A stretch of 64,000 bases of DNA, from contig CAWFGG010000001.1 in the NCBI GenBank assembly GCA_963815325.1, forward strand, positions 304,130 through 368,129, read 5' to 3'. The notes under the pieces are model-generated. The model did not search any database and was not told the DNA's origin. It saw only the letters and a program-made list of their open reading frames with translations. This DNA comes from an uncultured Gemmatimonadales bacterium. Lineage in GTDB: Bacteria > Gemmatimonadota > Gemmatimonadetes > Gemmatimonadales > GWC2-71-9. The translations under genes were made by a program, and so were the position numbers. Shown here piece by piece: positions 8,725 to 55,057 of the stretch; the stretch's first letter is position 1; every line of letters begins with the position of its first letter.

Positions 8725-8750
8725 GTCCGCATGGAACCAGATACAAAAGA

Positions 8751-8787
8751 GGGACGGCCGTCTGGCTCTTCACCAAACGACCGTCCC
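8751..8787 (+). terminator. Hairpin downstream of the yhaM-like gene (possible terminator)
   Basis: GGGACGGCCGT (8751-8761) pairs with ACGACCGTCCC (8777-8787) with one mismatch in 11 bp. It starts 27 nt after the TAG at 8722-8724. There is no clear U-tract. Confidence 0.3.
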
Positions 8788-9236
8788 ACACATCAGCTAC
8801 CCGAGGCCGGGGCTCGCGCCGCCGTTCTTCTCCCACCCGCCGCCGCTTGGCTGATGCGCCGATCGGTAGGGCTAGGTGAGGCCTCAGCTTCCATCCCCAG
8901 GCCGGATGGCCGTCCCACCTGGTTCGTTGATGCGAGCGCTGCGAGTCAGATCGGGTCGCGGACCGACCTTTCGCACTGCACCCCGAGGCGCCACATCGGG
9001 GTGGATGAAGCGCGCGACTGGCTTCATCCGCCTCGGTCGAGGTGATCACCGGAATCAAACGGTCACCTGAGCCCTTGGTGCTTGGTAACCTCTTCCGATA
9101 ACTCGCCGAAGCTCACTCGCTGGTCGTACCCAGAATTCAGGGATCCCAAGCCGGTCCCAACGAGTGACGACCTAAAGATAGGGCCCAGGCGAAATGGCGC
9201 AAGTGCCTGTCTTTCTTCGGGTTACGCGATTCGGAC

Positions 9237-9329
9237 TGTGGATAGATGTGGAGCATTAAGCCCTGATATCGGTATCAGGTAGAGGGCCTCTCCACAGGGT
9301 GTGGAGATGTTGATTACTGCTTCTCCACA
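9237..9329. repeat. Cluster of TGTGGAG/CTCCACA inverted repeats forming two adjacent hairpins
   Basis: TGTGGAt at 9237-9243, TGTGGAG at 9247-9253, CTCCACA at 9290-9296, TGTGGAG at 9300-9306, CTCCACA at 9323-9329. An inner hairpin CCTGATA-tcgg-TATCAGG lies at 9262-9279. The cluster sits in a lower-GC intergenic stretch between convergent genes. Confidence 0.8.
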
Positions 9330-9377
9330 CTTGGCTGAGGAATGGTTGCTAGGAGTACCGCGGTTGAGGATTGGTCC

Positions 9378-9986
9378 TCAGGACTCGAGGCCGACCTCGA
9401 TGTACCGGAACGACGAGTCCAGTTCGGTCGGAAGGAACAAGCACCCTGCTGAGCCGGCGGCGAACCATCCGCCGAGCAGCGCCCGGGGAACATCGAGTTC
9501 CTGGATCACCGGACCCAACCAGCGGCGCAGGTGCCGTACCTCGGGGGCCCGCCGCGCCAGGACCGACAGCAGGGCGCCACCGCCGGGTGTCGCACGGAGA
9601 AAATGCGCCAGCGCATGGGCGCGCTGTCTGAATTCCACGGCCTTGACGCCCGGTTCGTCGAACAACACGGCTCCCTCCAGCAGAGCGGTGGGCGGGGCGT
9701 CGAGCCGCGGGCCGAGATACACGTATTGGCGCGACTTCTTGATTTTACGCTCTACCACCGCCGCACCGGTCTCGCTGGTGAGCCGCGCCGCATGCAGCAG
9801 ATCGTCGTCGTGCAGGATGCCGACTGCCGCCGTCCATTCGAGGGCCGAGAGGGCGGATTCGATGGGACAGCCTCCGTCGTCTGTGGCGACCAGCCTCGGC
9901 GCTTCCCCGGCACGAAGCATGAAGTGCGCGAGGCCTTCGGCCCGGTCCATGAACGTCCGGACGACGAGAATTTGTGGCAGAGTCAT
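9378..9986 (-). CDS. Hypothetical protein
   Basis: The 202-aa ORF has balanced composition (MTLPQILVVRTFMDRAEGLAHFMLRAGEAPRLVATDDGG...). The overlapping + strand ORF 9301..9999 is Ser/Arg/Ala-rich and looks like a shadow frame. No family recognised. Confidence 0.5.
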   Translation of the reverse strand: MTLPQILVVRTFMDRAEGLAHFMLRAGEAPRLVATDDGGCPIESALSALEWTAAVGILHDDDLLHAARLTSETGAAVVERKIKKSRQYVYLGPRLDAPPTALLEGAVLFDEPGVKAVEFRQRAHALAHFLRATPGGGALLSVLARRAPEVRHLRRWLGPVIQELDVPRALLGGWFAAGSAGCLFLPTELDSSFRYIEVGLES

Positions 9987-10077
9987 CCCTGAAACCTAAG
10001 GCCGCGGCACCGTAAATTCTACGTGCGCCACCGACCGTGCGGCGCGAGCCGCTCACCACAGGCATCTGCCCCGGACG

Positions 10078-12060
10078 TCAGGGCACCGCCTCCGGCCGGG
10101 GTTCCACCCGGACGATCCAGAGCCCCGAGTTCATGTCCGGCACGTAGATCCGGCCATCCCGGTAGATCGCCCCCCAGGCCATGGGGGAGTTGGGCATCGT
10201 CGCGTTGGGGTCGCCGGTGTAGACGTGCGCGACTTGTCGTCCCTGCCGGAGTAGATCGCCTTTCAGTTCGCCCGAAATGTCGAGCACGCGGAGCCCACCC
10301 TGGTAGTCGCCGAGATACAGTGTGTCGCCGGCCACCCAGATGTTGTGCGCGCCTCCGTCTCTGGGCTCGTAGTACGCCACCTCCCGCGGGTTGAACAGGT
10401 CCGACACGTCGACGACATGCAACCCGCCGTACGGACGGCCCAATCCCAAAACGGTCGGGCCCGTGAGCGGCGATGGTGTCGCGGCGAACACCTCGTCGCC
10501 GACGAAGACATACCGGCCATGCCGCCAGGCGGTATGGGTGCCCCGAATGAAGCCCGGCCCGCCCACGGCCTCGACATCGCGATACAGCCGATCGAGGTCA
10601 TACTTGAACTGCGATACCAGCTGCGGGTTCTCTGGGGTTCCGCCCCGGACGCCGTTGCCCACATCCAGGATCACGAGGCCGTCATTCCAGTAGCTCAGAT
10701 AGGCCAAACCGTCCTGCACATCGATATCATGCAACATTCGTCCTGCGGGTGCGCGGGGCACTTCCCAGCGTGCGACCTGCCGCGGACTGTAAGGGTTCCG
10801 AATGTCTATCACACGCATCGAGCCGGTCGCGTCGTCTGTCAGGTACACATGGCCGCGATAGACGAAGGCGCTGTGGACACCTCCCGTGACCGTCTCGGTG
10901 AATTCGGCGATTGCCTTGGGGTGGGCCGGATCCTCGAAGGAGAGAATCACGATGCCGTTCTGTCTCGTCGAGGCCCCTTCACGGGTCATGACGCCGAACT
11001 TGCCGTCTTCGGTAGTCATGACGTCGTTGATGTGCCGTGCGTCAACCACCACCGAGTCCGTGATGAGTGGAGCGCCCGGATTGGACAGGTCGATGGCGTA
11101 GAGTCGGTCCCCAACCGTGGTCAGATAACCATATTGCCCGTTGGGGTGAAGCCAGAATTCAGCGGCGGTCCCCGCGACGGGTTGCCGACCCACGAGCGCA
11201 GCCGACCGGACCACGTTCCGCGCCGACGCTTCGACTCTCGCCTCCGCGGTGCGTCCGGCAAATGTCGCGACGATGCGATAAGATCCCGGCGCTTCAGCCA
11301 CAAACATCCCATCGGGATCGACCAGTGCGTGCCCCGGGCCCACCGCCCACTCGGGGCTGGCGTCTGCCAGTAGATTGCCGGCTGCGTCGCGTGCCCGAAA
11401 CGTGAACGCCACGACATCGCCGGTACGGACGGTCGCACTGGGGGGGTCCAATTCGATCGACGCCACGGGATTGGCGTTGACCCGGAGCGGCATCCGCTCA
11501 ACCACGGTTCCCACCCGCGCAGAGATGGTTGCCCGGCCGGGCCTGAGCGCGACGAGCCTCCCGGCGGATGTTACCGCCACCACTCCTGGAGCATCGGATT
11601 CCCAGAGCACCTCGTCATACCGGCGATCGCCATCGGCCGAATATGGGATGGCACGGACCTGTACTGATTGCCCGACATAGAGCATCGCGAGGGCGGGCTC
11701 GAGTGCGATCCGGGATGCCGGCCGGGGCACGATCCGCACGTCAGCGAAGCCTGTCGCTGGCGCCCCACCTCCACGACGGCTTACCAAGGCCGAGATGCGG
11801 AGAGTTCCGGTTGACCCGCCCGCCACCAGGCCAGTCGAATCCACGGACCCCTCGAATTGGCCGCCGGACTGAAACCAGCGGACGCGGATATCACGAAGCC
11901 TGGCTCCGGAGGAATCGTACGCCGCGACAGTGAGTCGAATGGTGTCGCCCACTACAATGGCAATGTCACGGGGCTCGACGTCGACCCGGGCCACAGACTG
12001 GGACGTGGGAGAGGGTGCCACCTGCTGAAGCGCGACGAGAAGAAGAGCTGCGGAAACCAT
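10078..12060 (-). CDS. Secreted protein with N-terminal Ig-like (Big_2-type) domains and a C-terminal LVIVD-repeat beta-propeller
   Basis: Signal-like MVSAALLLVALQQVAP. Ig-like segments follow (ARVDVEPRDIAIVVGDTIRLTVAAYDSSG; IALEPALAMLYVGQSVQVRAIPY; IELDPPSATVRTGDVVAFTFRA). LVIVD-type repeats recur (LYAIDLSNP, MRVIDIRNP, GLVILDVGN, GLHVVDVSD, GLRVLDISG). Start taken at the Met at 12060; the ORF extends to 12102. Confidence 0.8.
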   Translation of the reverse strand: MVSAALLLVALQQVAPSPTSQSVARVDVEPRDIAIVVGDTIRLTVAAYDSSGARLRDIRVRWFQSGGQFEGSVDSTGLVAGGSTGTLRISALVSRRGGGAPATGFADVRIVPRPASRIALEPALAMLYVGQSVQVRAIPYSADGDRRYDEVLWESDAPGVVAVTSAGRLVALRPGRATISARVGTVVERMPLRVNANPVASIELDPPSATVRTGDVVAFTFRARDAAGNLLADASPEWAVGPGHALVDPDGMFVAEAPGSYRIVATFAGRTAEARVEASARNVVRSAALVGRQPVAGTAAEFWLHPNGQYGYLTTVGDRLYAIDLSNPGAPLITDSVVVDARHINDVMTTEDGKFGVMTREGASTRQNGIVILSFEDPAHPKAIAEFTETVTGGVHSAFVYRGHVYLTDDATGSMRVIDIRNPYSPRQVARWEVPRAPAGRMLHDIDVQDGLAYLSYWNDGLVILDVGNGVRGGTPENPQLVSQFKYDLDRLYRDVEAVGGPGFIRGTHTAWRHGRYVFVGDEVFAATPSPLTGPTVLGLGRPYGGLHVVDVSDLFNPREVAYYEPRDGGAHNIWVAGDTLYLGDYQGGLRVLDISGELKGDLLRQGRQVAHVYTGDPNATMPNSPMAWGAIYRDGRIYVPDMNSGLWIVRVEPRPEAVP

Positions 12061-12400
12061 GCAAACCTCGAAATCGGAACAGAGAGGGCCGGAGCGGCAC
12101 AATTGGCCGAACGGGCTAATCTATGCCCACCTTCCGCATCCTGCGACTGTCTGGTACCTCACCCTCGAATCGAACCGGTGAGCACCGTATACATGCCTGA
12201 CGGTTCGAGGTGTGCGACGGAGTTATCGCTCCACGCTCACCGCAGGCAGCGCCGCTCGCTGGGAGGATCGGACTGCTACCCTCACGCAAGAAGAGGGAGG
12301 TGTCGAGGACGCCATCTCAAGGCAGGTCATGGTCATTGAGCTGGCCGCGAGCAGCGGGGCACGCCCACCTCGGGGCACGCCACGGAGATCCAGAAACAGC

Positions 12401-14080
12401 TTACTCACCACCCCCCGTCTGCGATACGACGGCATACCGTTCCGCCCACGGCCGGCCGTTGGCATCGCGAACAGCGGCCAGCGCCGGGCTCGGGGTCGTG
12501 AGTTCTAACTCCAGGCCTGGCGGCAGTTTCTCCAAGGTGAGCGCATCCGGAAACGGGCTGCCGCCCCACATCCGGTAGATCAGATCGCCGCGCCGGACCT
12601 CCAGGCGCTCGACTTCTTCCCACTGCGGCGTCTGGCGCGAAATGGTCATGATGCGCATGCCGTCCAACTCGAGCCATGTCTCCGTCTCGAAGTACATTCC
12701 CGGGGCCCGCGAGATGTATGTGGCCTGCTCCAATTGCGCGTAATAGTGGAACCCGTGGGCGAATCCCCCATCGAGCAAGACGACGGCGGTCCGACCTTCG
12801 CGTGCAATACTGCGCAGGTCCGCAAAGAAGGCAGGAAAGCCCTCCCCGTCGAAGTTCCCCTCCCCAAATCCACCGACCCCGAGGTTGCCAAGGAGCTTGC
12901 CGCTGGGGTTGTACGTCCAGTACACGAGTGCCCCGGTCGGCATGAACCCGTCATGGGTTCGGAACGAAGGTCCGACGAACGGATTGATGAGGTTGTTGGG
13001 TATGAAGTGCCCCAACCCGACGAACAGGTGGACGTTGACCAGCAGGAGCACTGTTGCCCAGGCCAGCGAGGGCCGAAGGATGCGAGTGGTGACCTGTACG
13101 AGATCCGTGACCCCCACGGCCGTACACAAAGCAATGGGCATGGCGATCAGCAAAAAGTATCGTGGCGTGGTGGTCGACCCGTAATAGAAGAGAACCGGCA
13201 CGGCACACCACGCCACGACGAACCCCCACACCCTTCTCCGCTCCGCCAACAAGTGGCGAAACCCAACGAACGCCACCAGGAGAGGAATAGGGGAAATCGC
13301 CCAGACGAGATACTCCCAGAACATTGTAGGATACCAACGATTGAAAATGTGGAGGGCGATTTCCGTCCCCATGCTGTCGGTACGGGGGTCGAAGGCGAGC
13401 GCGAGAACGTACGGGACCGCGACGGCCATCGAGGTAAGAGCGGCACGCGCGATGGCGGCGCCCCGTCGGTCGGGGTGGTTCACCCAGATCAGGTACGCGA
13501 CCACCGGCGCAACCAGAATCGCGTCCGCCCGAACGACGACCGCGAGCCCGAACAGGATGAGGCTCAGGGTCTCGGCTGCCACACGGGGGCGGTTGGACAG
13601 GATCGCCACGGCCACCGCGATCATCGCAGCCTGGAGCATCAGGGAGTTCCCGTACTGCGCGCTCGTCCAGACGATCGGGTTGACCGTGAGCACAGCGGCC
13701 ATCAGCCACCGTTCCTGCGATGTGAGGCTTCGGCGAAACGTGAACAGCGCCGCCAGTGGGATCACGGCGCCGCTCACGGCCGAGACGACCTTCATGATGA
13801 ACGGGATGAGCCCGACCCGAGCCCCCAACAACACATCCACCACCTCGATGAAGCGGTAGTAGCCGAGCTGCGGCGCATAACGGTATAGTCCCCCGCCTAT
13901 GCTGTCGCGTACTAATGCCGCCGTGCCCGCGGCGAGGGACAACTCGTCCTCTTCCCAGAAGTACTGGAAATAGGTGCCCAACAGACGAGCAGCGAGGAGG
14001 ACGACGAAGAACACGGCCCCCCCCGGAATCGTGGGCTCCTCTCGGAAGACCTTCAGGGATCCGAACACCTTCCTCAACAT
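12401..14080 (-). CDS. Polytopic membrane glycosyltransferase, GT-C fold (ArnT/PMT-like, family 39-like)
   Basis: The first ~400 aa are multi-TM, with an acidic first-loop motif (YFQYFWEEDELSLAAG). A C-terminal soluble domain of ~150 aa follows. It lies directly downstream of a GT2 gene with a 1-nt gap. Confidence 0.7.
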   Translation of the reverse strand: MLRKVFGSLKVFREEPTIPGGAVFFVVLLAARLLGTYFQYFWEEDELSLAAGTAALVRDSIGGGLYRYAPQLGYYRFIEVVDVLLGARVGLIPFIMKVVSAVSGAVIPLAALFTFRRSLTSQERWLMAAVLTVNPIVWTSAQYGNSLMLQAAMIAVAVAILSNRPRVAAETLSLILFGLAVVVRADAILVAPVVAYLIWVNHPDRRGAAIARAALTSMAVAVPYVLALAFDPRTDSMGTEIALHIFNRWYPTMFWEYLVWAISPIPLLVAFVGFRHLLAERRRVWGFVVAWCAVPVLFYYGSTTTPRYFLLIAMPIALCTAVGVTDLVQVTTRILRPSLAWATVLLLVNVHLFVGLGHFIPNNLINPFVGPSFRTHDGFMPTGALVYWTYNPSGKLLGNLGVGGFGEGNFDGEGFPAFFADLRSIAREGRTAVVLLDGGFAHGFHYYAQLEQATYISRAPGMYFETETWLELDGMRIMTISRQTPQWEEVERLEVRRGDLIYRMWGGSPFPDALTLEKLPPGLELELTTPSPALAAVRDANGRPWAERYAVVSQTGGGE

Positions 14081-14081
14081 C

Positions 14082-14822
14082 TCACATCATCCCGCGAAGC
14101 TGACGGACAAGCTCCACAGCCTTCGCGCCGAACTGCGTGAGACGAACGCTTGGTTCGCCACCGTACCGCTCACGGAACCTGATCGGGACCTTCCCGTGCG
14201 TGACCGACAGCCGTTTCAACAACACTGCCAGGCCGATATTGGTGAGATCGACCGGCGTCGCCTTCAGGCGGGTCACGGGGCCCTTGAGCACGGACGCGTG
14301 CATCAGCCGGTACGGCGTGTTCGCATCGATGCACCATACACGGGCCGTGACGAGCAGTACCATCCGAAGCAAGCGACTCGCCAACACGCGGCGCCACCCA
14401 TCGTCACGGGCCTTGCGCCAGCCGTAGATCACTTGATACCGATCACGCTCGCGCCACAGCCGGAAGAAGTACTGGGGATCGCATTGTCCATCTGAGTCGA
14501 TCTGGAACACGTAGCGAGCGCCCAGGTTGAGGGCACGCTCGTATCCGACGAGGCAGGTAAGCCCATGCCCACGGTTGGAATGCGTGTGGAGTCGAATGCG
14601 GTCGCCGAGTTGCTCCTGCAACCGTTCGACGATAGCGGGGCTCCGATCGGTCGAGCCATCGTTCATCACCAGAATGACAAAGTCTTCCGTCCAGTTCTCT
14701 ATCTCCAGGTACCACTCCCGAATCACCTTGCGTAACGATGGTTGTTCGTTATACACGGGAATGACCACCACCAATTCGGGCGACATGTTTCCACCTGCCG
14801 TTGTGTCGTCAGCTCCCGTCAT
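14082..14822 (-). CDS. Family 2 glycosyltransferase, polyprenyl-phosphate glycosyltransferase-like (ArnC/GtrB/DPM1-like)
   Basis: VVVIPVYNEQPSLRKVI...VMNDGSTDRS...QIDSDGQ are GT2 (GT-A) DXD-type signatures at the size typical of ArnC/DPM1-like enzymes. The start abuts the glf stop; an alternative start is 14786. Confidence 0.8.
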   Translation of the reverse strand: MTGADDTTAGGNMSPELVVVIPVYNEQPSLRKVIREWYLEIENWTEDFVILVMNDGSTDRSPAIVERLQEQLGDRIRLHTHSNRGHGLTCLVGYERALNLGARYVFQIDSDGQCDPQYFFRLWRERDRYQVIYGWRKARDDGWRRVLASRLLRMVLLVTARVWCIDANTPYRLMHASVLKGPVTRLKATPVDLTNIGLAVLLKRLSVTHGKVPIRFRERYGGEPSVRLTQFGAKAVELVRQLRGMM

Positions 14823-36840: not shown

Positions 36841-39800
36841 CAGGACGTACCTCCTTCTCTGCGGCGAAGCTCCCAGTACAACAGCGGCACGACCACCATC
36901 GTGAGCAAGGTTGCGACGATGGCGCCGCTGATCAGCGCCACGGCCAGACCCTGAAAGATCGGATCGAGCACCATGACCAGGCCCCCGATCACCACCGCCG
37001 CGGCCGTCAAGGCAATCGGCCGGAACCGTACGGCGCCCGCCTCCACCACGGCCTCGGCCAACGGGCGGCCGCGCTCTTCCGCCAGCTGGATGAAATCGAC
37101 CAGCAGGATCGAGTTTCGAACGATGATGCCGGCGAGCGCGATCATCCCGATCATCGAGGTGGCCGTGAAGAACGCCCCGGTCACCGCATGTCCTGGCAGG
37201 ATTCCCACCAGCGTCAGTGGAATGGGCGCCATGATGACCAACGGAATCTTGAACGACTGGAACCACCCGACCACCAGCACGTAGATCAGGATCAAGACCG
37301 CCGCGAAGGCGATCCCGAGATCGCGAAAGACTTCGATGGTGATGTGCCACTCGCCGTCCCACTTCATCGCCGTCTCATCCAGCTGCTCGGGGAGAACGGC
37401 GTTGTAGCGCCGGATCTCAGCCCCGGCCACCCGCACCGTATCCAGGGCCCGGTTCATGTTCAGGATCGCGTAGACCGGTGACTCGACCGTGCCGGCTACA
37501 TCGCCGGTTACGTATATCACCGGGCGCAGGTTCTTCCGATAACGCGACGGCTCGCGCACGGTGGAGTCGACGGTGACGAATCGCGCCAGCGGTTGCGAAC
37601 CGGAGGCCGTGGCCACCGGGGTGGCCAGCAAGGCCTGCACCGAGGACCGCTGGGGAAGCGGGAACCTCGTCACGATGGGCACCGGCTCGCGAGCCGGCGA
37701 TTCTCGCACGAGGCCCGCGACCGATCCCGAGAGTGCCAGCGTGAGCGTGTGGGTCAGTTGTTCGACGCTGGCGCCGGCTTGCGCTGCGCGGACCCGGTCC
37801 ACGCGTGAACATCCACCCTGCCTGCGGCGCTTCGAGCGACCAATCGACATCGACCACACCGGCCGCGTGCTCGAAGACATCCTTGACGCGCCGGGCGGCC
37901 TCGATACGGGTGGAGTCGTCCGCCGCATAGATCTCGGCAACCAACGTCGAAAACACCGGCGGCCCCGGCGGAATTTCGGCAATCTTGGCGCTGGCCCGGT
38001 AGCGCCGCGCGATTGAGTCGATCCCCGGCCGCACCGCGACCGCGATGTCATGGCTCTGTCGCTTCCGATCGTCCTTCGGGCGCAAGTTCACCTGGAGGTC
38101 CACGCCGTTCGGGCTTTGGCGGAGGAAGTAGTGCCGCACGAGGCCGTTGAAGTTGAAGGGCGCCGCCGTGCCGGCGTACACCTGGGTGTTTTCAACTTCC
38201 GGTGTCTCCCCGACGTAGGCCGCCACTTCAGTGCCGAGCGCATTGGCGGTTTCGAGTGTCGCGCCCTCCGGAAGATCCAACACCACCTGGAACTCACTCT
38301 TGTTGTCGAACGGCAGCATCTTGACCTTGACCACCTTGATCGCCAGGAGCCCCATGGAGAGCACCAGGAGTGTGGCCACGGCGCCGTAGAACAGATGGCG
38401 GCGGCGCGGATCGTCCATGAGAGGCTGCATGATCCGGGCATACCGTTGGCCGAATTGCGACCGTTCTTCGGGCTCGTGGGCCACATCCGTCTTGGGGTGT
38501 GTCACCGGCACGTGGCCGCGCAGGAGGCGCAGTGCCAGATACGGAGTGATCATGAACGCCACGGCGAGCGAGGCCAGCATCGCCGCCGAGGCGCCGACCG
38601 GGATGGGGCGCATGTACGGCCCCATCAAACCCGAGACGAAGGCCATCGGGAGAATCGCGGCGATCACGGTGAAGGTCGCGAGGATGGTCGGATTCCCGAC
38701 CTCGTCCACCCCTTCCACGGCGGCCACCTCCGGTGTGCGTCCACCCATCTGGAGATGGCGGTAGATGTTCTCGACGACCACAATCGCGTCGTCGACCAGG
38801 ATGCCGATCGAGAAAATCAGAGCGAACAGCGTGATCCGGTTGAGGGTGTAGCCCAGGGCGTAGTAGACGAAGAGGGTCAGGCCCAACGTCACCGGAACCG
38901 CCACGAGCACGATGATCGCTTCCCGCCAACCCAGGAAGATGCCGATGAGCACGGTGACCGACAGCGTCGCGATCAACAGGTGGAGGATGAGTTCGTTGGC
39001 CTTCTCGCTCGCCGTTTCCCCGTAGTCGCGTGTCACTTCGAGTCCGACGTCGGCGGGAATCAACCGAGAGCTGGCTGCCTCGACGCGCTCGAGGACTGCA
39101 TGCGCGATGGCCGTGGCATTGGCGCCCGGTCGCTTGGCGATCGCAAGCGTGACGGCATGTTCCACGACACCGTCACGTCCCCGATGAGATACGTAGTGCT
39201 CGACTTCGCCGAAGGTGTCGTCGAGTGTGGCCACGTTTCCCAGATAGACCGGCCCGGCTCCCCGGCTGCTCACGACGACCCGCGCGAGATCCTGGACGCT
39301 CCGAATCGGGGCGCCGATCTGCACCCGGAACACGGCGTTGTCCGAGGCAAACTCGCCGGCCGTCAGGCGCGCGTTGGTGCCGCGAAGCGCCGCCGCTACT
39401 TCGCCCGGCGTGATCCCGTTCGATGCCAGGCGCGCCGGGTCGAGTATCACACGCACGGTGCGCGGTCTGCCGCCAACCACGAACGTCTCCGCCACGTCCG
39501 GCAGCGTCCGGACTTCATCATCGAGATGCGTGGCGATGAGCCGCAGTTCATCGGACCCGTAGCGCGTCGAGTGTAGGGTCAGCGTGAGGATCGGGACGTC
39601 ATCGATGCTGTGCGGCTTGACCAGAGGCGGAGACGCTCCGGGTGGAGCTTCGTCCATGGCCGCGGCGAGCTTCGCGTGGACCTTGCTGACGCTCCGATCC
39701 TGATCCTCGCCTACCGTGAAGCGCACCGTGACCAGCGTCATGCCGTCCCCGGCCATCGCGTAGACGTACTCGACCCCCGGATATTTCCCACATCAGCTTT

Positions 39801-40012
39801 TCGATCGGGCGCGTCAGCAAGTTCTCCACTTCCGATGGACTCGCTCCCGGGAAGGCCGCCATGACGTCGATCATGGGGACCGAGATTTGCGGCTCTTCCT
39901 CGCGCGGCGTGCCGAGCAGCGCGAGGGCGCCCACCGCCAAGGAGGCCAGCATGACCAGCGGGGTCAGTTTCGACCGGAGGAAGGCCTGTGCAACCCTGCC
40001 CGCGATGCCCAT
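36840..40012 (-). pseudogene. RND efflux permease interrupted by two frameshifts
   Basis: Three consecutive ORFs carry contiguous RND sequence. ORF 39599..40012 reads [22 protein letters not shown]...[14 protein letters not shown]...[12 protein letters not shown] 37417..39756 is preceded in its frame by YPGVEYVYA, then reads [13 protein letters not shown]...ILVDDAIVVVENIYRH...VDVDWSLEAPQAGWMFT. ORF 36840..38051 reads VDRVRAAQAGASVEQL...IVRNSILLVDF...LLYWELRRRE. The frame switches lie at about 39779-39785 and 37800-37810. Confidence 0.85.
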
Positions 40013-42500: not shown

Positions 42501-42617
42501 AGCAAGGGATTGCGTCGCTACAGTCTGAGCCAGGCCTCGTGAAGGCCCTTGCCATCGAGTATGAGGGTTCCTTGTTTCTCCCCAACGCTCGATCATGTCC
42601 GTGGGTACCGGGTGCTA

Positions 42618-43022
42618 ATGGAAAGCAAGATGGAAGACAGGTCGGTCCGACTCGATCAGTGGCTCTGGGCCGCGCGGTTTTATAAGACCCGCGCCTTGGC
42701 TGCCCGCGCCGTCGAGGGGGGCAGCGTCCAGGTGGACGGCCAACGGGTAAAGCGGGCCAAAGCCATTCGAATTGGCGACCAGATCCGCATTCGACAAGCG
42801 CCGTTCGAGTACCAGGTGGTCGTTCGGGGACTGGCCGAGCGCCGGGGCTCGGCAGCTGCGGCAGGAGAACTCTACCTCGAGACACCGGAGAGCAGGTCGG
42901 CTCGGGAGGTCCTTACGACCCGCCTGAAGAGCGCGCCCCCGCCCCTGTTCTACGAGAAGGGCCGCCCTTCCAAGAAGGAACGGCGGGAGATGGAGCAACT
43001 CAAGCGGCGGCAACGTGAATAG
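42618..43022 (+). CDS. hslR: Ribosome-associated heat-shock protein Hsp15 (S4 RNA-binding domain)
   Basis: VRLDQWLWAARFYKTRALAARAVEGGSVQVDGQRVKRAK closely follows the HslR N-terminus, with a basic C-terminal tail. An alternative start is 42630. Confidence 0.85.
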   Translation: MESKMEDRSVRLDQWLWAARFYKTRALAARAVEGGSVQVDGQRVKRAKAIRIGDQIRIRQAPFEYQVVVRGLAERRGSAAAAGELYLETPESRSAREVLTTRLKSAPPPLFYEKGRPSKKERREMEQLKRRQRE

Positions 43023-43103: not shown

Positions 43104-45018
43104 GTGAGCGCGCTCCTTGGCGCATTCCCGGAATATGGATCGCCACCGCCGAGTGACGCGGCGCTCAGCCCCGCGCTCGATGCGCTTCGCGTACGAGGCC
43201 GCGATCGGGAAGAGCTGCATCGTGAGGACGCGGCATTGCTCGGAGTGCTCCGCCACGACTGGGAGCTTGCACCGTGGATCTCGGGCAATGTCCTACTCGC
43301 CCGGGACCAGGAATCCGGTGTCGTCGTGGCCGCGGATGCGGCCCTGTACTATCGCGACGATTTGCTGCGCGCCATGGGGCAGGCCGGGATTCGCAGCCGG
43401 GGCAGTAACCCCGCCGAGCTGATCCTTGCCGCATACCTGGCATGGGGCGATTCGTGCCCCGACGCGACTCGAGGGTGATTTCGCCTTCATTCTCTGGGAC
43501 GGGCGCCAGAGGCGGGTGTTGGCTGCCAGAGATTTCGGTGGGAAACGGCCGCTGTTTCACGCCGAGTTTGGCGGGACGCTCTTTCTCGCCTCCACCATCC
43601 CGGCCCTCCTCGCCGCACCGGGCGCGAGCCGGGAACTCGATTGGACGGTGATTGCCGAGGCGGCCGCGGCGCTGACCAACTCACCGGACGAGACGGCCTT
43701 TGGCGCAGTTCGCCGTCTCCCTGCCGGATCGACGCTCGTGTACGAGCCAGGTTCGGCGCCACGAGTCCGGCGGCATTGGTGGCCGCCCACCTTCCGCACT
43801 TGGGGAGAACACAACTCGAAAGACGCGGCCGCGGAGCTCAGACGCACGCTCGAACGGGCGGTCGATGAGCGCATGGCAGGCGAAGGCGTAACGGCGTGTT
43901 TCCTCTCGGGCGGGTACGACTCCCCGGCAGTTTACGCAGCGGGACGCCACCTATTGGCAAACAGCGGAGCCCGGCGCGAACTCCGTGCTATCTCGATGAG
44001 TTTTCCGCCCGGCGACTCCGGCCGGGAAGACGAGCTCATCGAGCAGATCGTCGGACACTGGAACGACGCGACGCGTTGGATCCAGAGCACGGACGTTCCC
44101 TTCTGCGAGGATCCGGAGGAGCACGCGCGTCAACGCGCCGAGCCATACCCGCACCTCTTCGAAACCTTCAACCGCGTCGCCACCCGCGCTGCCGTTGGCC
44201 AAGGTGCACGGGTTGTGCTGGACGGGAGCGGCGGCGACCAGCTCTTTGCCGTCGGGGCGAATGTCCTGTCAGATCTGCTGCGTGGCGGGCATTGGCTCTG
44301 GTTGGCTTCGGATTGGAAGGCCCTGGGTGGAGGGAGCTGGCGAGACTTCTTCAAGGTGGCGGTCCAGCCCCGGATGGGACCGAAACTGCTTCGAGCGGCA
44401 ACCTGGCTCCGCGGCGGCCGCCCGCTGGCCGATGTCGGGTTCGTTCGCGACATCCCGCCCTGGTTCTCGAAGACGTTCGTCGAGCGCCACGGCCTTCGAA
44501 CCCGCGAGCACGATCGCCAACCGGCCCGCGGCACCATGAGTTGGTCCGCCTACGAAGCCTTGTGGTACCTGACCACCCCGGCGTTCCCTCGCATGGCCGA
44601 ATACGTCGCGAGCTTTGCCTTGGAGGAGGGCGCCGAGTACCGCTCCCCGCTCCTCGACAGGCGAATCGTCGAATTGGCGGCCACCCGCCCGGCATCGGAC
44701 CGGCGCCGGGGCACCGAGACCAAGCTACTGCTTCGCCACGCCATGGAAGGACTCCTACCGACATCCGTCCTCGCTGGGCGGCCGCACAAGACCGGGATGC
44801 CGGTGGACTACATGCGGGGATCCGCCCGGGCCCTCCTAGGCGGGCCGTTGCGTCCGCTGCTCCGAGATTCAGCCCTGGCAGAGGCCGGGATCGTCGAGCC
44901 GGAGGCCTTGCAGAGGGCAGTCGAGCGCTGTGTGGCTGGCCAGGACGACGGGCAGGCCGTTGGGCTCTACCTGACCCTCCAGGCCGAACTCTGGGCGCGT
45001 CAGCAGATTGGGGGGTGA
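43104..45018 (+). pseudogene. Asparagine synthetase B-family protein without the N-terminal Cys (lasso-peptide cyclase-like), one frameshift
   Basis: ORF 43104..43478 reads MSALLGAF...ELILAAYLAWGDSC. ORF 43426..45018 reads RLEGDFAFILWDGRQRRVLAARDFGGKRPLF...ACFLSGGYDSPAV (PP-loop SGGxDS). Together they make one AsnB-like protein if one base is removed near 43455-43470. Residue 2 is Ser, not the glutaminase Cys. Confidence 0.8.
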
Positions 45019-45201
45019 AGACCCGCGTGGGGAGGGGTGTCCCCGGTTTGGGACATCGCCCACCCCGGGTTGCCGCCAGCCGTTCGCCCCCCCCAACCCC
45101 CCCTTGCGGACGGGGCTTTCGTACGGTACAGTTTCTGCAGCTAAGAAAGCTGCGATGGGGTTGTGGTCATGTAGTCCGGCCCAATGTCTCAGAGGTGGTG
45201 T

Positions 45202-45384
45202 ATGTACGCCAAGCCTGTGTTGGAGCGATTCGGCACATTTCGGGATCTCACCCAGATGCCGCCGCCACAAGGAAAGAAGGATCCAGGTGCGGACCTGACG
45301 ATGCGATCAACTGTGAGTCCCATGCCGGTCCGGTCGCCGCTGCATGCGGTGGCAGTCCGGAACGGCGGCGGTCGCACGAGCTGA
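45202..45384 (+). CDS. Candidate RiPP (lasso-type) precursor peptide
   Basis: ATG preceded by GAGGTGG. The N-terminus MYAKPVLERFGTFRDLTQ fits the lasso leader pattern YxxPxLxxxGxxxxLTx with Thr at -2. A hairpin terminator lies 52 nt downstream. It sits between the AsnB-like gene and the ABC transporter genes. Confidence 0.5.
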   Translation: MYAKPVLERFGTFRDLTQMPPPQGKKDPGADLTMRSTVSPMPVRSPLHAVAVRNGGGRTS

Positions 45385-45435
45385 TTCCGCTGGGAGGTTC
45401 TTGACCTTCCGCCGCACAATTACCGAACTGTGAAC

Positions 45436-45480
45436 CGCCCGCCCTCTGAGAAATCTCCGAGGGCGGGCGTCCCTTTGGGT
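45436..45480 (+). terminator. Intrinsic-terminator-like hairpin after the small peptide ORF
   Basis: A perfect 11-bp stem, CGCCCGCCCTC (45436-45446) with GAGGGCGGGCG (45459-45469), a 12-nt loop, then TCCCTTTGGGT. Confidence 0.55.
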
Positions 45481-45572
45481 ATAGGGGCCGCCATCGGCCC
45501 GAGATCCTCGAGCCTGTTCAATCCTCGACGCTGGCAAGTGAGCCCTCCAGGCACCCACGGTACCAAGCCCCA

Positions 45573-46614
45573 GACCCGGCATTCGTTTTCCTCCGGGGGC
45601 TCACCAAGTCCTACCCGATTCACCGCCAATGGCGCGAGATACTGCGCCGCCCGTTCACCGAACAGTGGACGGCCGCGCTCGAGGGAGTGGACTTAGCCGT
45701 TGAGCGTGGCGAGTTCTTCGGCCTCCTGGGACCGAATGGGGCCGGCAAGACCACACTGTTCAAGGTGCTGTCCACCCTCATCACCCCAGACTCCGGTCAG
45801 GCCCAGGTGGACGGCCTCGACGTGGTGCGCAGACGCCGCCCAGGTGCGGAAGATCCTGTCGCCCGTGATCCCGGATGAACGCAGTCTCTTGTGGCGCCTC
45901 TCGGCGCGCGAGAACCTGAATCTCTTTGCCGGCCTGTACGGCTACAGCGGCAACGGCCGTGCGGCTCGGGTCAACGATCTCCTGGACATCGTGGGCCTGG
46001 AGGAAGCGGGCAACAAGATGGTGGGGCAGTTCTCGTCCGGCATGAAGCAGCGACTGCTCATCGCGCGGGCGCTCCTCCCCGAGCCGCGGCTGCTGCTGCT
46101 CGACGAACCGACCCGGAGCCTCGATCCGGTGTCGGCCGAGCGCTTCCGCAGGTTCCTCCGCGACGAGATCGGTGGGCGCCAGGGTTGCACGATCCTCCTC
46201 GCCACGCACAACGCCGAGGAAGCGCTCGATTTGTGCACCCGTGTGGCCGTGCTCGATCGGGGGAGGGTCCGGGCGGTTGGGACGCCGGAGGCGCTCGCGC
46301 TCCGCGTGGCGGAGCAACGCTTCCGGATCTACACGCGGACGCCAGACGCGCCGGCGTTCGGGGAGTTGCTCCACCGGGGGTTGGCGCAGAGTGTCAGCAT
46401 GACGGCAACGGCCGACGGCCAGTGGTCGGTAGTAGAAGTAGAGATTTCCAGAGGCAATGAGGGATGTGAAGCCGTTCTTGCCTACCTCGCCCGCCAGGGC
46501 GTTGCGGTAGCCCGGCTCGAGCGCATCCGACCCACCCTGGCCCAGGTGATCGAACACGTGGTGGCCCAGCATCCGCCGGTCGCACCATCATCAGCCGAGG
46601 CCCCTCGATCATGA
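45573..46614 (+). pseudogene. ABC transporter ATP-binding protein (ABC-2 subfamily) with a frameshift and no obvious start codon
   Basis: The frame of ORF 45687..45878 reads ...[66 protein letters not shown]...QVDGLDVV (Walker A). The frame of ORF 45700..46614 continues [19 protein letters not shown]...FSSGMKQRLLIARAL...LLLLDEPTRSLD (signature, Walker B). The switch lies near 45825-45835. There is no in-frame ATG/GTG/TTG upstream of LRGLTKSY. Confidence 0.8.
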
Positions 46615-47411
46615 GGACGATCCTGGCGTTCCTGCGGGCCAATTGGCTCACCGCGACGAGCTACCGGATCGACCTCGTCATCTCGCTCATTTCGCTGGCC
46701 GCCGCCGCCGTCCCGCTCTACTTCGTGTCGGGTGCACTGCAGCCCTTGATGGCGGACTCGATCCGTACCGAAGGCGGGCAATATTTCGGGTTCGCGCTGG
46801 TGGGCATCGTGACCTACAGCTTCCTGGGTGTTGCGGTGAACAGCATCCCCACCGGCTTGGGGAAGAGCATCAGCTCGGGCACCATCGAGGCATTCCTGGT
46901 CGCGCCGGCATCCCTGCCTTCGATTCTCGCCGCGTTCGCCTCCTACGATCTGATATGGACCACCCTGCGGGCCGTGGTCTTTCTCGGCGTGGGCGCGGTT
47001 CTTGGCGCCCGCTTTGCCCCGTCGGGGCTGCCGGCAGCCCTGTTCATCCTGGCTCTAACCGTGCTGGCCTACGTGCCCATCGGCCTCATGGCGGCGGCAA
47101 TGGTCATGGCATTCCGAACGACGGGGCCGCTTCCCAAGGCGGTGTTCGCAGCCTCGGCGCTGCTCGGTGGCGTGTACTATCCCACGACCGTCATCCCGTC
47201 ATGGATCGAGCTGGTGTCGCGCATCGTGCCCCTCACCTACGGGCTCCGCGCCATCCGGCGCACCCTGCTCGAAGGATGGTCACTCGGCCAGGTGGGAGGG
47301 GACGTATTGACCCTGATCGGGATCAGCGCCGTGCTGTTCGCCGTGGCCATTCCGTTGTTCCTGAAGGCACTTGGGACGGCACGGCGCCGCGGCACGCTCG
47401 CTCACCCATGA
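46611..47411 (+). CDS. ABC-2 type transporter permease
   Basis: A six-TM profile typical of ABC-2 permeases (MRTILAFLRANWLTATSYRIDLVISLISL...). There is an ATGA overlap with the ATPase stop. Confidence 0.85.
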   Translation: MRTILAFLRANWLTATSYRIDLVISLISLAAAAVPLYFVSGALQPLMADSIRTEGGQYFGFALVGIVTYSFLGVAVNSIPTGLGKSISSGTIEAFLVAPASLPSILAAFASYDLIWTTLRAVVFLGVGAVLGARFAPSGLPAALFILALTVLAYVPIGLMAAAMVMAFRTTGPLPKAVFAASALLGGVYYPTTVIPSWIELVSRIVPLTYGLRAIRRTLLEGWSLGQVGGDVLTLIGISAVLFAVAIPLFLKALGTARRRGTLAHP

Positions 47412-47417: not shown

Positions 47418-49307
<1,890 letters not shown>

Positions 49308-49571: not shown

Positions 49572-52179
49572 ATGCGCAGCTCTCGTTGGCAAGGCCTGGT
49601 CCGCTGGCGGGCTTCCCTCGTATTCCTAGGAGTGTGCGCCGCCAGCCTGGCATTCGCGACCTCGGCCCGAGCCCAAGCTACCGGCACCGTCACGGGCTCC
49701 GTGACCCGAGCCGAGGATGGAATTGCGCTCCTCGGCGTGACGGTGTTGGTGCAGGGAACCAACCTCCAGACGTCCACCAACGCGGAAGGTCGGTACACGC
49801 TCGCACGAGTGCCAGGTGGGGCACAGGTCATTGTGTTTCGCTGGCTGGGCTACGGCGGGGTCGATCAGCCGGTCACGGTTTCGGCCAACCAGGCCGCGGT
49901 AGTGAACGCGGCGCTGACCCGGGCCCCCATCGCGCTCGGCGAACTGACGGTCGAGGCAGCCTCCCGGGCGCCGGAGCGGGTGGTCGACGCGCCGGCCGCG
50001 GTATCGGTGGTCACGCCGCAGGTACTCCGGTCGGCGTCACTCACCGGCCAAGCCGGAATCGCGCTTCAACGTCTCCCCGGTGTGGACGTAGTCCAGAGCG
50101 GGGTCAATGATTTCAACATCAATGCCCGCGGGCTCAACTCGTCGCTGAACCGACGGGTGCTGGTCCTCTTGGACGGCCGTGACCTGGCGATCGCGTTCCT
50201 TGGCGCCCAGGAGTGGAACGGGCTCCCGGTACCGCTCGAGGACCTGGATCGGGTCGAGATGGCGCGAGGCCCGGGCTCAGCACTGTATGGTGCCAACGCG
50301 TTCAGCGGCGTAGTCAACATGATCACGCCGGACGCGCGCCAAGTCTTGGGCACCAAGGTCTCATTGGGCGGTGGCGAGCTGGCCACCTTCCGGGGCGACC
50401 TCCGGCACGCCGGCATACTCGGTGAGGGCCGCGTCGGGTACCGCGTGAACGCGGGCTTCTACCAGAGCGAGAGCTTCACCCGTCGCGAACGGGCGTTGGT
50501 GACTGAGCAAGGAATACGCAGCCGCGTCGACGACCTCCGAGGCTCTCCGTCCAGCACCGTTTCCGGGGTTTGAAGTCGTCCCGCTAGATGGTCAGACGAC
50601 GGCAACTCCTTTTGGTCAACCGGTGCCGCCACCGGTGAACCGGACGATCTGCGCAACATCTACGGCTCGGCCCGCCTCGATTACTACGCCGACAACGGCT
50701 CGGTTGTCTCGGTGGATGGTGGGGCCAGCCGGGTCGAGAACGAGGTCTTCGTGACCGGCATCGGGCGAGTACAGGTCAAGAAGGGCACCAAGCCTTGGGC
50801 CCGCGTTGCCTGGGCCGCCGAGCGATTCAACATTTCGGCGTGGTACACCGGACGGAACACCAACGAGGATCAGGTGTCGCTCGCGAGCGGCGCCGCGCTC
50901 TTGGAAACCTCGGCGATCTTCCACTGTCGAGGGCCAGACCAACCACAACTTCCTGGAGGACCGCGGCCGCGTGGTGGTTGGCGCATCGTTCCGGAACTAC
51001 AACGTCGATACTGACAGCACCCTCATGGCCCTGAGCGACGATGATCGGAGTGACAAGACCTATTCGGTCTATGGGCAAGTCGAGTTCAAACTGATTCCCG
51101 AACTCAAGGCGGTTGCGGCGCTTCGCTTTGACGACGCAGATCTGCACGACGCCCAGTACTCACCCAAGGGCGCGCTGGTGTTCAGCCCGACGCCGGATCA
51201 TTCCATCCGGGTCACCTACAATCAGGCGTTTCAGGTTCCCAACTATTCCGAGTTCTTCCTGCGCGCCGCCGCAGGGGCTCCGGCCAACTTCTCGCAGCTC
51301 GAGAGCGGGCCTCCGCGGCCTCGCCACATTGGGGCCGCGGCTCTAACCGGCGTCCCGGTGGGTCAGCTCTACGTCCGATCGTCCCCGGTGCAGGAATGGC
51401 TCAGCGACTGTGCCGGTCCTGGCGCCTCGGCAATGCCGGCCTCGAAGTGGAGAAGGTCAAGGGCTGGGAGATCGGATATAAGGGCAACATCACCGATCGC
51501 GCCTACGTAACGGTCGATCTCTTTCAGAGCAAGATCGAGAACTTCGTGACCGATCTCCTGCGCTGGCGTCGAGAACCCGACATATCGACCGCTCCTGGAC
51601 AGCACCTGCAGCGCTCCGGACAGCATCCGGCGCGGCGGCCGATGCGCGACAGTCGCGTCGCCGCCGGAAGGTCCCGGCGACCCTGAGGCTACCCAGCTAC
51701 CGGACGATGCGAGCGGCAATTGTCAGTTTCGTACACCAACGCGGTGACGGTGAAGCAGCGCGGCGTCGAGCTCGGCTTCGGCATTCAACTCATCGACGAA
51801 GTCCGCTTCGACGGGTCGTACACCTTCTTCGACACGAATTTCTTCCAGGACAACATCAAGGGCCTGGCGGCGGGAGACGTGCTGCAACCCAACACGCCCA
51901 AGCACAAGGCCAACTTGTCGCTCGCCTATAGCGGGCTCCAGGGCATCGACGCCGAGGTGGCCCTCCGGATGATCGATGGGTACGACGTGGGCCGCCGGCA
52001 TCTTCCAGGGCTATGTGCCGTCGAGTGAGACGGTCAACCTGAGCGCCGGCTACCGGATCAGTAACCACTTCCGAGTCCAGGCCGCCGTCACCAACCTGTT
52101 CGATCAGGAGCGCTACCACCTCTATGGTGGCTCGGTTATCGGCCGGCGCATTCTCGGTGGGGTGACAACCTACTTCTAA
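49572..52179 (+). pseudogene. TonB-dependent receptor (carboxypeptidase-regulatory-like N-domain, plug and barrel) with at least seven frame disruptions
   Basis: ORF 49572..50573 gives the signal peptide, the CarbopepD_reg-like domain (GTVTGSVTRAEDGIALLGVTVLVQGTNLQTSTNAEGRYTLARVP) and the plug (LPGVDVVQSG...VLVLLDGRD...ARGPGSALYGANAFSGVVNMIT). Barrel segments continue in alternating frames (ORFs 50712..51014, 50806..51510, 51396..51686, 51720..52028, 51976..52179). The sequence ends in the canonical ...GRRILGGVTTYF. Confidence 0.85.
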
Positions 52180-52289
52180 TCGCCGCGTGACCACGCTGGG
52201 GCACCGTGCCCGATTCCGGCCGCGCCGGGATCGGGCACGGTGTCGTTGGTGGGATAGCGTCTGAGCCAGCGGGCCGGCAGATTCGTTTC

Positions 52290-53150
52290 ATGGTGCCTGC
52301 TCTCCTCCGCACGTTGGCCTTCGCGGCCGCGATCTACGTCGTGCTGGCCGCGGTCCTCTGGTTGTCTCAGGCCCGGATGATCTTCTTCGCACCCCGAGGA
52401 GCCGTACCCGATCCGCGCACGTTCGGGCTCATCGGCGAGCGGGTGGCGGTCGAGACGGCCGATGGGCTCACGCTCTACGGTTGGTACTTGCCGGCGGAGC
52501 GGGAAGGCGGCTCGGTTGCGCCGGCCCTCATCTGGTTTTACGGCAACGCCGAAAACGTGGCGCTGCTGGCACCCCTCCTCGGCTCGCTCCGCCCACCCGG
52601 CTATGCCCTCCTGGTCCTGGACTATCGTGGCTACGGCCAGAACCCGGGCAAGCCGAGTGAGGCGGGGCTCTACCAGGACGCGGATGCCGCGTGGGCGTGG
52701 CTCGATGGCAGACCGGACATCGATCTCGGGCGCGTAGCCGTCTACGGGCGATCACTGGGAAGCGTGCCGGCGCTCTACCTTGCCACCACCAAGCCGGTGG
52801 CGGCCGTGATTCTCGACTCGCCGTTTACCACGGCCCGAGCCATGGCCCGGGTCCACTACCGGCTGTTCCCGTCGTTTCTGGTCCGCTACACAATGGACAA
52901 CCTGGCGCGATCGGGGCGGCTCAGCGCGCCGTTGTTCATCATCCACGGGACCCACGACCAGATCGCACCCATCCGCATGGGACGAGCCCTGGCCAGGTCG
53001 GGACGGGCCCACGTGCTGCACGAGGTCCAAGGGGCAGGGCACAACGACGTCTACCAAATGATTCGACCACCCTACGCCCAAGTGATTCGGCAGTTTCTCG
53101 CTACCGTCCGGGACGCAGGGGCGACCGGGCCGCCGCGCGGCACGCCGTGA
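52290..53150 (+). CDS. Alpha/beta hydrolase (BEM46/S33-like), membrane-anchored
   Basis: N-terminal TM helix (MVPALLRTLAFAAAIYVVLAAVLWL), nucleophile elbow GRSLGS, then HGTHDQIAP and GAGHND. Confidence 0.8.
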   Translation: MVPALLRTLAFAAAIYVVLAAVLWLSQARMIFFAPRGAVPDPRTFGLIGERVAVETADGLTLYGWYLPAEREGGSVAPALIWFYGNAENVALLAPLLGSLRPPGYALLVLDYRGYGQNPGKPSEAGLYQDADAAWAWLDGRPDIDLGRVAVYGRSLGSVPALYLATTKPVAAVILDSPFTTARAMARVHYRLFPSFLVRYTMDNLARSGRLSAPLFIIHGTHDQIAPIRMGRALARSGRAHVLHEVQGAGHNDVYQMIRPPYAQVIRQFLATVRDAGATGPPRGTP

Positions 53151-53983: not shown

Positions 53984-55057
53984 ATGGCTCGCAAAAAGGT
54001 TGGTAAGAAGGCTCGCAGGAAGGCTGGCACGAAGCCCAGGAGGCTCTTTTGGACCCGCTGGTCGGACGAGCGGCTCCTCGAGCTCAGACTCTGCGACTTG
54101 GGGCTTCGGGTCGAGGGCACCTGGATTGCCAAGCGCGTGAAAGAACTCTACCGCGAGCTTGCGTCGCGGGGCATCCGGCTGCGGCCCCACATCTGGCTGA
54201 CCGACGAGTGGTTCAGCCCGGCCGGGATTCCCGGCATTGGCGTGCCATTCTATTTAGCGCATCCAAGGCTCATGCGGCTCGAACGAACCAAGATGCTCGA
54301 AGTGGAAGGTGGCACGCGAGCGGATTGCCTCCGGATACTGCGTCACGAGACCGGACACGCGCTCCAACATGCCTATCGTCCGGAGCGCCGGCGGTCGTGG
54401 CAGGGATTGTTCGGTCTCTCCTCCACAAAGTATCCGGAGTACTACCGGCCGAATCCAGCCAGCAAGCGCTACGTGCAAAACCTCCGGCTTTGGTACGCAC
54501 AGAGCCACCCGGACGAGGACTTCGCGGAGACCTTTGCGGTGTGGCTCAAGCCCCGCTCCGATTGGCGCAAGCGCTACGCGAGCTGGCCGGCCATCAAGAA
54601 GCTCGAGTACGTCGATCGGTTGATGGCCGAGATTGGGCCAACCGTACCGCCGGTGCGGACGCGGGCACAAATGGACCCGATCTCGGCGCTCCGCATTACC
54701 CTTGGCGATTTCTATGCGGCTCGCCGCGAACGCTACCGCATGGACATCCCCAATACCTACGATCGCGATTTGCTTCGTCTCTTCTCGAATGACCCCCGGC
54801 ATCGCCGTCATCGGGCGGCCTCCACGTTTCTCCGACAGCATCGTGCCGAGATCCGAGCCCGAATCGCCAAGTGGTCCGGCGAGTATCAGGCCACCCTCGA
54901 CGCGGTATTGGCCGACATGATTGCCCGCTGCCGGGAACTCCGACTCCGTGTGGTGGGGTCCGAGCGGCAGCTGGTGATCGACTTCACCGTCATGCTGACG
55001 GTGAACGTCATGCAGGTGCTGTACGGCCGTGGCCGGCGGGATTGGATCGCGCTATGA
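53984..55057 (+). CDS. Putative zinc-binding metallopeptidase-like protein (HExxH; DUF2248-like)
   Basis: Basic N-terminus (MARKKVGKKARRKAGTKPRR), then LRILRHETGHALQHAY (HExxH) and HPDEDFAETFAVWL. No signal peptide. Confidence 0.6.
   Translation: MARKKVGKKARRKAGTKPRRLFWTRWSDERLLELRLCDLGLRVEGTWIAKRVKELYRELASRGIRLRPHIWLTDEWFSPAGIPGIGVPFYLAHPRLMRLERTKMLEVEGGTRADCLRILRHETGHALQHAYRPERRRSWQGLFGLSSTKYPEYYRPNPASKRYVQNLRLWYAQSHPDEDFAETFAVWLKPRSDWRKRYASWPAIKKLEYVDRLMAEIGPTVPPVRTRAQMDPISALRITLGDFYAARRERYRMDIPNTYDRDLLRLFSNDPRHRRHRAASTFLRQHRAEIRARIAKWSGEYQATLDAVLADMIARCRELRLRVVGSERQLVIDFTVMLTVNVMQVLYGRGRRDWIAL

Follow-up and report, generated by a model that had tools for sequence, protein, structure and literature searches.

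The small open reading frame (ORF) that starts at position 45202 of the analysed 64,000-nt stretch of Gemmatimonadales DNA (the window) is a genuine precursor gene of the lasso peptide family and is conserved in relatives. It is best explained as the precursor of a reduced lasso cluster, the product of which is probably processed in trans and then cyclised by the adjacent cyclase, a reading to which a probability of about 0.6 can be given. Judged from alignments to relatives, the real product is a peptide of 61 aa, of which 18 belong to the leader and 43 to the core.

The translation of the ORF in the initial annotation was reproduced exactly on re-reading, and the lasso-leader spacing claimed there is in place, with Y2, P5, L7, G11 and T17 at their positions and a Thr at -2 that can be read directly. 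Aligned to the curated NCBIfam leader model NF033521 (lasso_leader_L3), the ORF scores 22.3 bits, above the cut-off of 19, with the match spanning residues MYAKPVLERFGTFRDLT, and the leader motif written as a regular expression has a single match across the six frames of the window. A second in-frame ATG at 45184 is missing from L002, L005 and L010, whereas ATG 45202 and the Shine-Dalgarno sequence are invariant among relatives. At its other end the ORF closes with GRTS and the stop codon in the window and in every clade member, which gives the peptide a C-terminal Ser. A protein search returned three homologues of the precursor, one of them being P0001, MYAKPVLERFGTFRDLTQMPPPRGKKDPGADLASALNCESHAAPGSHAACGGSPGNGGGRTS; the homologue P0003 is already named lasso leader-containing protein by NCBI. 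The initial annotation had made its assignment dependent on conservation in related genomes, and the leader as well as the core frame are conserved there. Over 17 leader positions, the window leader is 53-88% identical to that of other loci (mean 70%), while the cyclases of these loci are 39-49% identical to the window's (mean 44%). As the leader is conserved far above the cyclase, recognition by a shared B1/B2 pair is plausible.

Table 1. Features of the precursor gene and its cluster in the window
Feature	Position	Strand	Basis or remark
Lasso-cyclase (C) homologue, AsnB-like	43104..45018	+	Pfam Asn_synthase, GATase_7; best NCBIfam NF033535
Promoter-like site TTGCGG, 17-nt spacer, TACAGT	45104..45132	+	Hexamers and spacing conserved in 8 related loci
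5'-UTR block GTTGTGGTC(A/G)TG	45160..45171	+	Conserved in 8 loci, one A/G position varies
Shine-Dalgarno GAGGTGG	45192..45198	+	GAGGT invariant in all relatives
Precursor (A) ORF	ATG 45202 to TGA 45382-45384	+	Direct translation
Leader peptide MYAKPVLERFGTFRDLTQ (YxxPxLxxxGxxxxxTx)	45202..45255	+	NF033521 match, family conservation
Core region and stop	45256..45384	+	DNA alignments to L001, L002, L005, L006, L010
First 1-nt deletion	45301..45302	+	ACG A-T GCG vs relatives' ACG AGT GCG; shifts to +2 frame
Two more 1-nt deletions	45356..45362	+	CC-GGAA-C vs CCCGG(T/A)A(C/A)(C/T); leader frame regained
GC-rich hairpin, then short T run	45435..45469	+	Folding and conserved stem
ABC transporter ATPase (DrrA-like)	45552..46614, start approximate	+	Domain matches
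ABC-2 permease, 266 aa, intact	46611..47411	+	Pfam ABC2_membrane

The cluster and its neighbours follow the order S4/Hsp15 (42549-43022), cyclase, precursor, ABC ATPase, ABC-2 permease and, on the minus strand, thiC, and this order together with the opposite-strand thiC is common to at least six related contigs, L001, L002, L003, L005, L006 and L010. The AsnB homologue reported earlier beside the precursor is indeed an adjacent cyclase-type gene with the lasso cyclase model NF033535 as its best NCBIfam match, although its 221 bits lie below the model cut-off of 525, as do the 241 bits of the cyclase from the canonical cluster L008. A 1-nt insertion near 43463 breaks the cyclase gene, which in relatives encodes an uninterrupted protein of 637 aa; another 1-nt insertion, near 45831, breaks the gene of the ABC ATPase, likewise intact in relatives (about 355-358 aa). 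The ABC-2 permease is 99% identical to the L006 protein, and an exact-protein look-up of it gave no record. Further downstream, a TPP riboswitch (RF00059, 63.8 bits) lies at 49188-49291 on the minus strand, upstream of thiC; the listed 611-aa thiC ORF (47418-49253) runs past this riboswitch, and a start that fits the relatives is found near 49109.

The leader-binding protein B1, the peptidase B2 and the kinase are absent from the neighbourhood of the precursor. Searches by tblastn with the L007 and L008 proteins for B1, B2, the kinase and NTP_transf_5 gave only matches of E > 0.8 in the 64-kb window, and no B1, B2 or kinase is present within 10 kb on either side of the cluster in L006/L009. 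A B2 HMM built from 53 family proteins had no match in L001-L006 or L009-L011, a PqqD-like B1 is absent from the window clade by the same searches, and no Transglut_core3 domain was found within 10 kb on either side of the L006 cluster. The HprK-like kinase that is missing in the window was found in 66 related loci, where it matches HprK_rel_A weakly. An alpha/beta hydrolase gene with weak S33, S15 and S9 peptidase matches (52206-53150, plus strand) and a gene for a Peptidase_Mx protein (53984-55057, plus strand) lie 5-8 kb downstream, past thiC and a TonB receptor, and show no sign of peptide processing.

Homologues of the cyclase number in the hundreds at 40-50% identity and come nearly all from Gemmatimonadota; of 89 sources, 87 contain a leader-motif ORF, which adjoins the cyclase gene in nearly all of them. 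Cluster architectures were assigned with HMMs built from the related loci. The majority type consists of B1, B2, C, A, an HprK-like kinase, ABC, ABC-2 and NTP_transf_5 (for example L008, the B2 of which passes NF033537). A B2-less type retains B1, C, A, kinase, ABC and ABC-2 (L007, L012, L014, L015, L023, L024, L036, L037, L039, L040, L049 and L061), and thus the sister clusters L007 and L014 still possess B1. The window's clade (L001-L006, L009-L011) is reduced to C, A, ABC and ABC-2, and a minimal type has only C and A within 10 kb on either side (L016, L017); the neighbours of L016 include a Peptidase_S10 gene and a virginiamycin B lyase-like gene and nothing B-like. A neighbour-joining tree of the cyclases unites the B2-less, window-clade and minimal groups in one clade, which implies that B2 was lost in one event and that B1 and the kinase disappeared later. 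Three loci (L019, L025 and L022, at positions of about 9900-14500 in each) have two cyclase genes with a separate precursor after each. As L022 also lacks B2, this gene was apparently lost more than once. L079 is the sole locus of the cyclase family from a MAG labelled Gammaproteobacteria, for which a binning error or horizontal transfer is possible.

Cores in this family are long and diverse. Among 59 distinct precursors, 55 have Asp or Glu at core position 7-9 (Asp8 alone 34 times, Asp9 alone 14 times), and the first core residue is A in 12, I in 11, G in 10, V in 6, L in 5, M in 4 and S in 4, with others in the remainder. Core length ranges from 17 to 48 aa, and two tail Cys and a final Ser are present in most. 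The long core of the window and its non-Gly first residue are therefore ordinary for the family. The features for which the core had been called atypical, Met1, PPP at positions 2-4 and its length, are real, with Met1, PPP and Asp9 conserved in relatives too, but long cores with a residue other than Gly at the start are usual among the roughly 60 Gemmatimonadota homologues. An outlier is found at 2409-2579 of L092, where the textbook leader MYEKPVLERFGSLRQLTA precedes a core (APFAALGAPLSLATSSMTGMGGCGPNIPIGD...) that has no acidic residue in its first 30 positions.

In the mechanism proposed for the window cluster, a PqqD-type B1 would bind the YxxPxL...T leader, and a B2 encoded elsewhere in the genome, or another protease, would cut it. 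The adjacent AsnB-type cyclase would then adenylate an Asp of GKKDPGAD and close a macrolactam onto a free amine, through which the tail may be threaded, while the two conserved tail Cys, seen only once the frame is repaired, could form a disulfide and the ABC-2 pair would export the product. Supply of the peptidase in trans is suggested by five MAGs with a B2-less cluster that hold a second lasso-type locus, four of these loci carrying B2 and the fifth (L047) beginning at its cyclase, which leaves the upstream genes out of view. The proposal is further consistent with the score of the leader model, with the best match of the cyclase and with the full lasso clusters of more distant relatives, in which B2 passes NF033537. 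It has to be weighed against the absence of B1, B2 and kinase described above, against the fact that no second cyclase locus appeared in the three MAGs of the window clade among the best 80 matches, and against the core itself, in which an insert separates the leader from the conserved Gly and the Asp at position 9 is replaceable. A literature search for trans-acting or missing lasso peptidases gave no direct precedent.

That the cluster is maintained is seen from substitution rates. For window-clade pairs that include L002 or L005, with dS about 1, dN/dS is 0.03-0.16 for the precursor, 0.014-0.19 for the core only and 0.13-0.17 for the cyclase, and MPPP(Q/R) is maintained across relatives despite synonymous changes. 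Purifying selection and the retention of this motif indicate that the B-less cluster is functional in relatives.

In the window, the middle third of the precursor gene is garbled by single-base deletions, and the suspicion in the initial annotation that nearby indels conceal part of the true core was right. The first deletion shifts the reading to the +2 frame and the two others, with the missing bases at about 45358-45361, restore the leader frame; in addition, the gene is one codon (3 nt) short near 45332-45338 compared with relatives. As the losses total 6 nt, the original stop codon is retained, and the pattern leaves the MPPPQGKKDPGADLT start and the GGGRTS end in the leader frame with only the middle in +2. 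Residues 33-53 of the ORF as read (MRSTVSPMPVRSPLHAVAVRN) are accordingly out of frame with respect to every relative. The conserved core reading is MPPPQGKKDPGADLT[S]AINCESHAGPVAAACGGSP[G][N]GGGRTS and stop, and putting three bases back gives MYAKPVLERFGTFRDLTQMPPPQGKKDPGADLTSAINCESHAGPVAAACGGSPGNGGGRTS, 61 aa, which matches the relatives; the peptide that they indicate is MYAKPVLERFGTFRDLTQ/MPPPQGKKDPGADLTSAINCESHAGPVAAACGGSPGNGGGRTS (here and below, the slash marks the predicted cleavage site). To the question of which frame orthologues conserve, the alignments give a mixed answer, the leader frame at both ends of the core and +2 in between.

The three deletions in the precursor are most likely assembly errors. 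Compared with L006/L009, the closest relative (a Gemmatimonadales MAG, 84-99% protein identity), window genes that match in at least two frames are the cyclase, the ABC ATPase, two RND pump genes and the TonB receptor, and isolated 1-nt indels are visible at the frameshift points when compared with L001. Isolated 1-nt indels break up the RND efflux pump (37221-40012, minus strand) and the TonB-dependent receptor (49572-52176, plus strand), so that each is spread over two or three frames, with three frameshift sites in the receptor. Indels in these genes of the same kind as in the lasso genes point to an error-prone assembly, and the presence of similar isolated indels in unrelated genes makes assembly error the likely cause.

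An alternative is that the cluster in this genome is a decaying remnant, in which the frameshifts are real mutations that came after B1, B2 and the kinase had been lost. Three of its four genes (cyclase, precursor and ABC ATPase) are broken in the window, which would fit a dead cluster as well as a misassembled one, and the three deletions plus the 3-nt loss in the precursor fall inside about 60 nt, an unusually high local density. Decay nevertheless seems unlikely, since unrelated neighbours are broken alike (at two points in the RND pump and at three in the TonB receptor), a split RND pump and outer-membrane factor (OEP) gene are also found in the near-identical long-read MAG L006, all other copies of the cluster are intact and under purifying selection, and the deletions in the precursor add up so that the stop codon is preserved.

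The possible position of the ring can be considered by comparison with related cores. Sister clusters have TQ/GKSDPGFD (Gly1-Asp8) or TQ/AGKSDPGWD (Ala1-Asp9). The window clade has TQ/MPPPQ-GKKDPGAD, in which a 5-aa insert (MPPPQ or MPPPR) separates Thr(-2)x(-1) from the conserved G of GKKDPGAD and places the first Asp at 9, a canonical position, and the second at 13. Asp9 is found in the window and in the other clade members with the insert (L001, L002, L006, L010), while L005 has only two extra residues (TL/QQ-GKKDPGAD) and its Asp at 6 and 10, which makes a canonical ring impossible there. A metagenome scan for further spacer variants yielded, besides one unrelated core, nothing but near-identical MPPP(Q/R) copies, and a literature search for 10-membered lasso rings gave no direct precedent.

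A profile search extended the subfamily to 25 distinct cores (L007, L012, L014, L016, L017, L019, L061, L093, L096-L098 and proteins P0125-P0141). All 25 share the pair Lys(i)...Asp(i+6), an invariance that is partly circular because the subfamily was delimited partly by eye, and the distance of the Lys from the Thr(-2)x(-1) site varies from 1 to 9 residues. An acid at position 7-9 is present in only 13 of these cores. Where the window has Asp9, several members carry V, S, A or T, whereas no member departs from Asp13. The Asp9 to which the initial annotation pointed is thus real and stands at a ring-compatible position but is not the conserved Asp of the subfamily, and the replaceability of Asp9 beside an invariant Asp13 suggests D13 as the probable ring acceptor. 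Its amine partner could be an N-terminus at Gly6 or Lys7, Met1 in an oversized ring, or the Lys side chain. Members with B1 and B2 can lack an acid at 7-9 too: P0126 (QGGDD-GKKVLGFDL) has none there though its cluster has both genes, and the precursor of L093 (...LTL/QGGDDGKKVLGFDL...) has neither Asp nor Glu at core positions 7-9. L093 contains a complete cluster at 5680-12645 (B1, B2, C, A, kinase and ABC genes).

The Lys side chain leads to a second alternative, in which the cyclase would join the epsilon-amine of K7 to D13 and removal of the leader, and with it B2 and B1, would be dispensable. Such a ring without the N-terminus would explain the loss of B2 and then of B1 as well as the variable distance between Thr(-2) and Lys; it would agree with the constant Lys-Asp spacing despite this offset, with the scarcity of acids at 7-9, and with the absence of B2 throughout the window's cyclase clade. 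The spacing is rare elsewhere, occurring in 1 of 40 cores of other subfamilies, and by the atom count made here the Lys-Asp lactam has 26 ring atoms, equal to the 8-residue Gly1-Glu8 lasso ring. On the other hand, a literature search gave no precedent for a lasso cyclase acting on a Lys side chain, the sister clusters have the textbook Gly1 to Asp8 arrangement, the motif is also present in clusters that retain B1 and B2 (L093, L019, L025), and the invariance shares the circularity noted above. A Lys-Asp link is rather improbable, somewhat more so than decay.

Two further readings concern the core sequence itself. It is very improbable that this strain makes the peptide read in a single frame throughout (core MPPPQGKKDPGADLTMRSTVSPMPVRSPLHAVAVRNGGGRTS): the frame is open and shares its start and stop with relatives, but its middle 21 residues match no relative, while all relatives agree with these bases when they are read in +2, both Cys included, and the as-read core was rejected for this reason. 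A core read in +2 from the first residue onwards (AAATRKEGSRCGP...), which would have three Cys and a ring between Ala1 and Glu7, was translated correctly in the initial annotation and contains one genuine segment, DAINCESHAGPVAAACGGSP, but is refuted by the alignments, as relatives keep MPPP(Q/R)GKKDPGADL, and with it the MPPPQGKKDPGADLT start, in the leader frame through synonymous substitutions, no relative encodes AAATRKEGSRCGP, and Glu7 and the third Cys are out-of-frame artefacts with a counterpart in no relative.

Comparison with known systems places the 61-aa precursor and its cluster close to the phosphorylated lasso peptides. The clusters of paeninodin, pseudomycoidin and Bsf comprise split B1/B2, an HPr-kinase-like kinase, a nucleotidyltransferase and an ABC transporter (PMC6993621, PMC10368454), which is exactly the gene set of the window's more distant relatives; the Thr at -2, the YxxPxL motif and lasso kinases have been described as well (PMC10368454). 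The window cluster shares with this type the YxxPxL...Thr(-2) leader, the AsnB-type cyclase, the ABC exporter and the C-terminal Ser. It differs in having no B1, B2, kinase or nucleotidyltransferase, and its core is about twice as long, with two tail Cys and the 5-aa insert after the cleavage site. The curated cut-off of NF033521 is exceeded by the window ORF and by its relatives, but membership of this family describes the leader only, as the model is silent on the core and on the completeness of the cluster.

Class IV lasso peptides such as LP2006 have one disulfide inside the tail. Both conserved Cys of the window family are likewise in the tail, C-terminal to any possible ring, but the tail is much longer and Gly/Ser-rich, and the disulfide is a prediction here. 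In the minimal system of pseudomycoidin, a leaderless core is converted into the peptide by the cyclase on its own (PMC6993621), so that a lasso cyclase can be active with no leader peptidase present. The window gene, unlike this system, still encodes a highly conserved leader, which implies that a protease or a leader-independent cross-link is still needed. Among lasso peptides, metanodin was the first in which ring position 1 is Asn (PMC12670498), and novelty at this position was still called unprecedented in 2025 (PMC12670498). Its unusual first ring residue and its origin in a cluster from an uncultivated soil bacterium resemble the situation in the window, but metanodin was produced in E. 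coli from the cloned cluster, whereas Met1 is predicted here and may not be the residue from which the ring is closed.

Lasso clusters have been counted in marine Gemmatimonadota (PMC11316326), and a literature search on lasso peptides of this phylum found such cluster counts only and none characterised. The loci compared here indicate that Gemmatimonadota hold a large lasso family with a near-uniform leader and long, very diverse cores, in which one clade retains the cyclase and the precursor under purifying selection after loss of the peptidase, with the branch of the window having also lost the leader-binding protein. Supply of the peptidase in trans would mean that several lasso clusters share one processing pair, and genome-mining rules that demand B and C together would then miss clusters of this kind. 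Without such supply, the macrolactam would be made in a way not yet described.

The signals flanking the precursor are conserved as well, in eight related loci in which the stretches between these signals have diverged. The promoter-like site proposed earlier is present with its two hexamers (TTGCGG at 45104-45109, TACAGT at 45127-45132) and 17-nt spacing, and the hexamers are conserved in eight related loci although the spacers diverge, but a scan with an E. coli-type sigma-70 consensus did not call the site; it is retained as promoter-like on the strength of conservation. The conserved 5'-UTR block sits between this site and the Shine-Dalgarno sequence. The latter was found as claimed, with GAGGT located 4-10 nt upstream of the ATG. 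Downstream of the precursor, the hairpin that had been proposed as a terminator at 45436-45469 has arms at 45435-45446 and 45459-45469, and the 61-nt fold is stable (dG -32.9 kcal/mol, z = -4.8, with 0 of 200 shuffles as stable). Its stem is conserved in relatives and its loop variable, with one compensatory change from G-C to A-T in L002. Judged by fold and position, it looks like a terminator or attenuator ahead of the exporter genes, which could set the ratio of precursor to exporter transcript.
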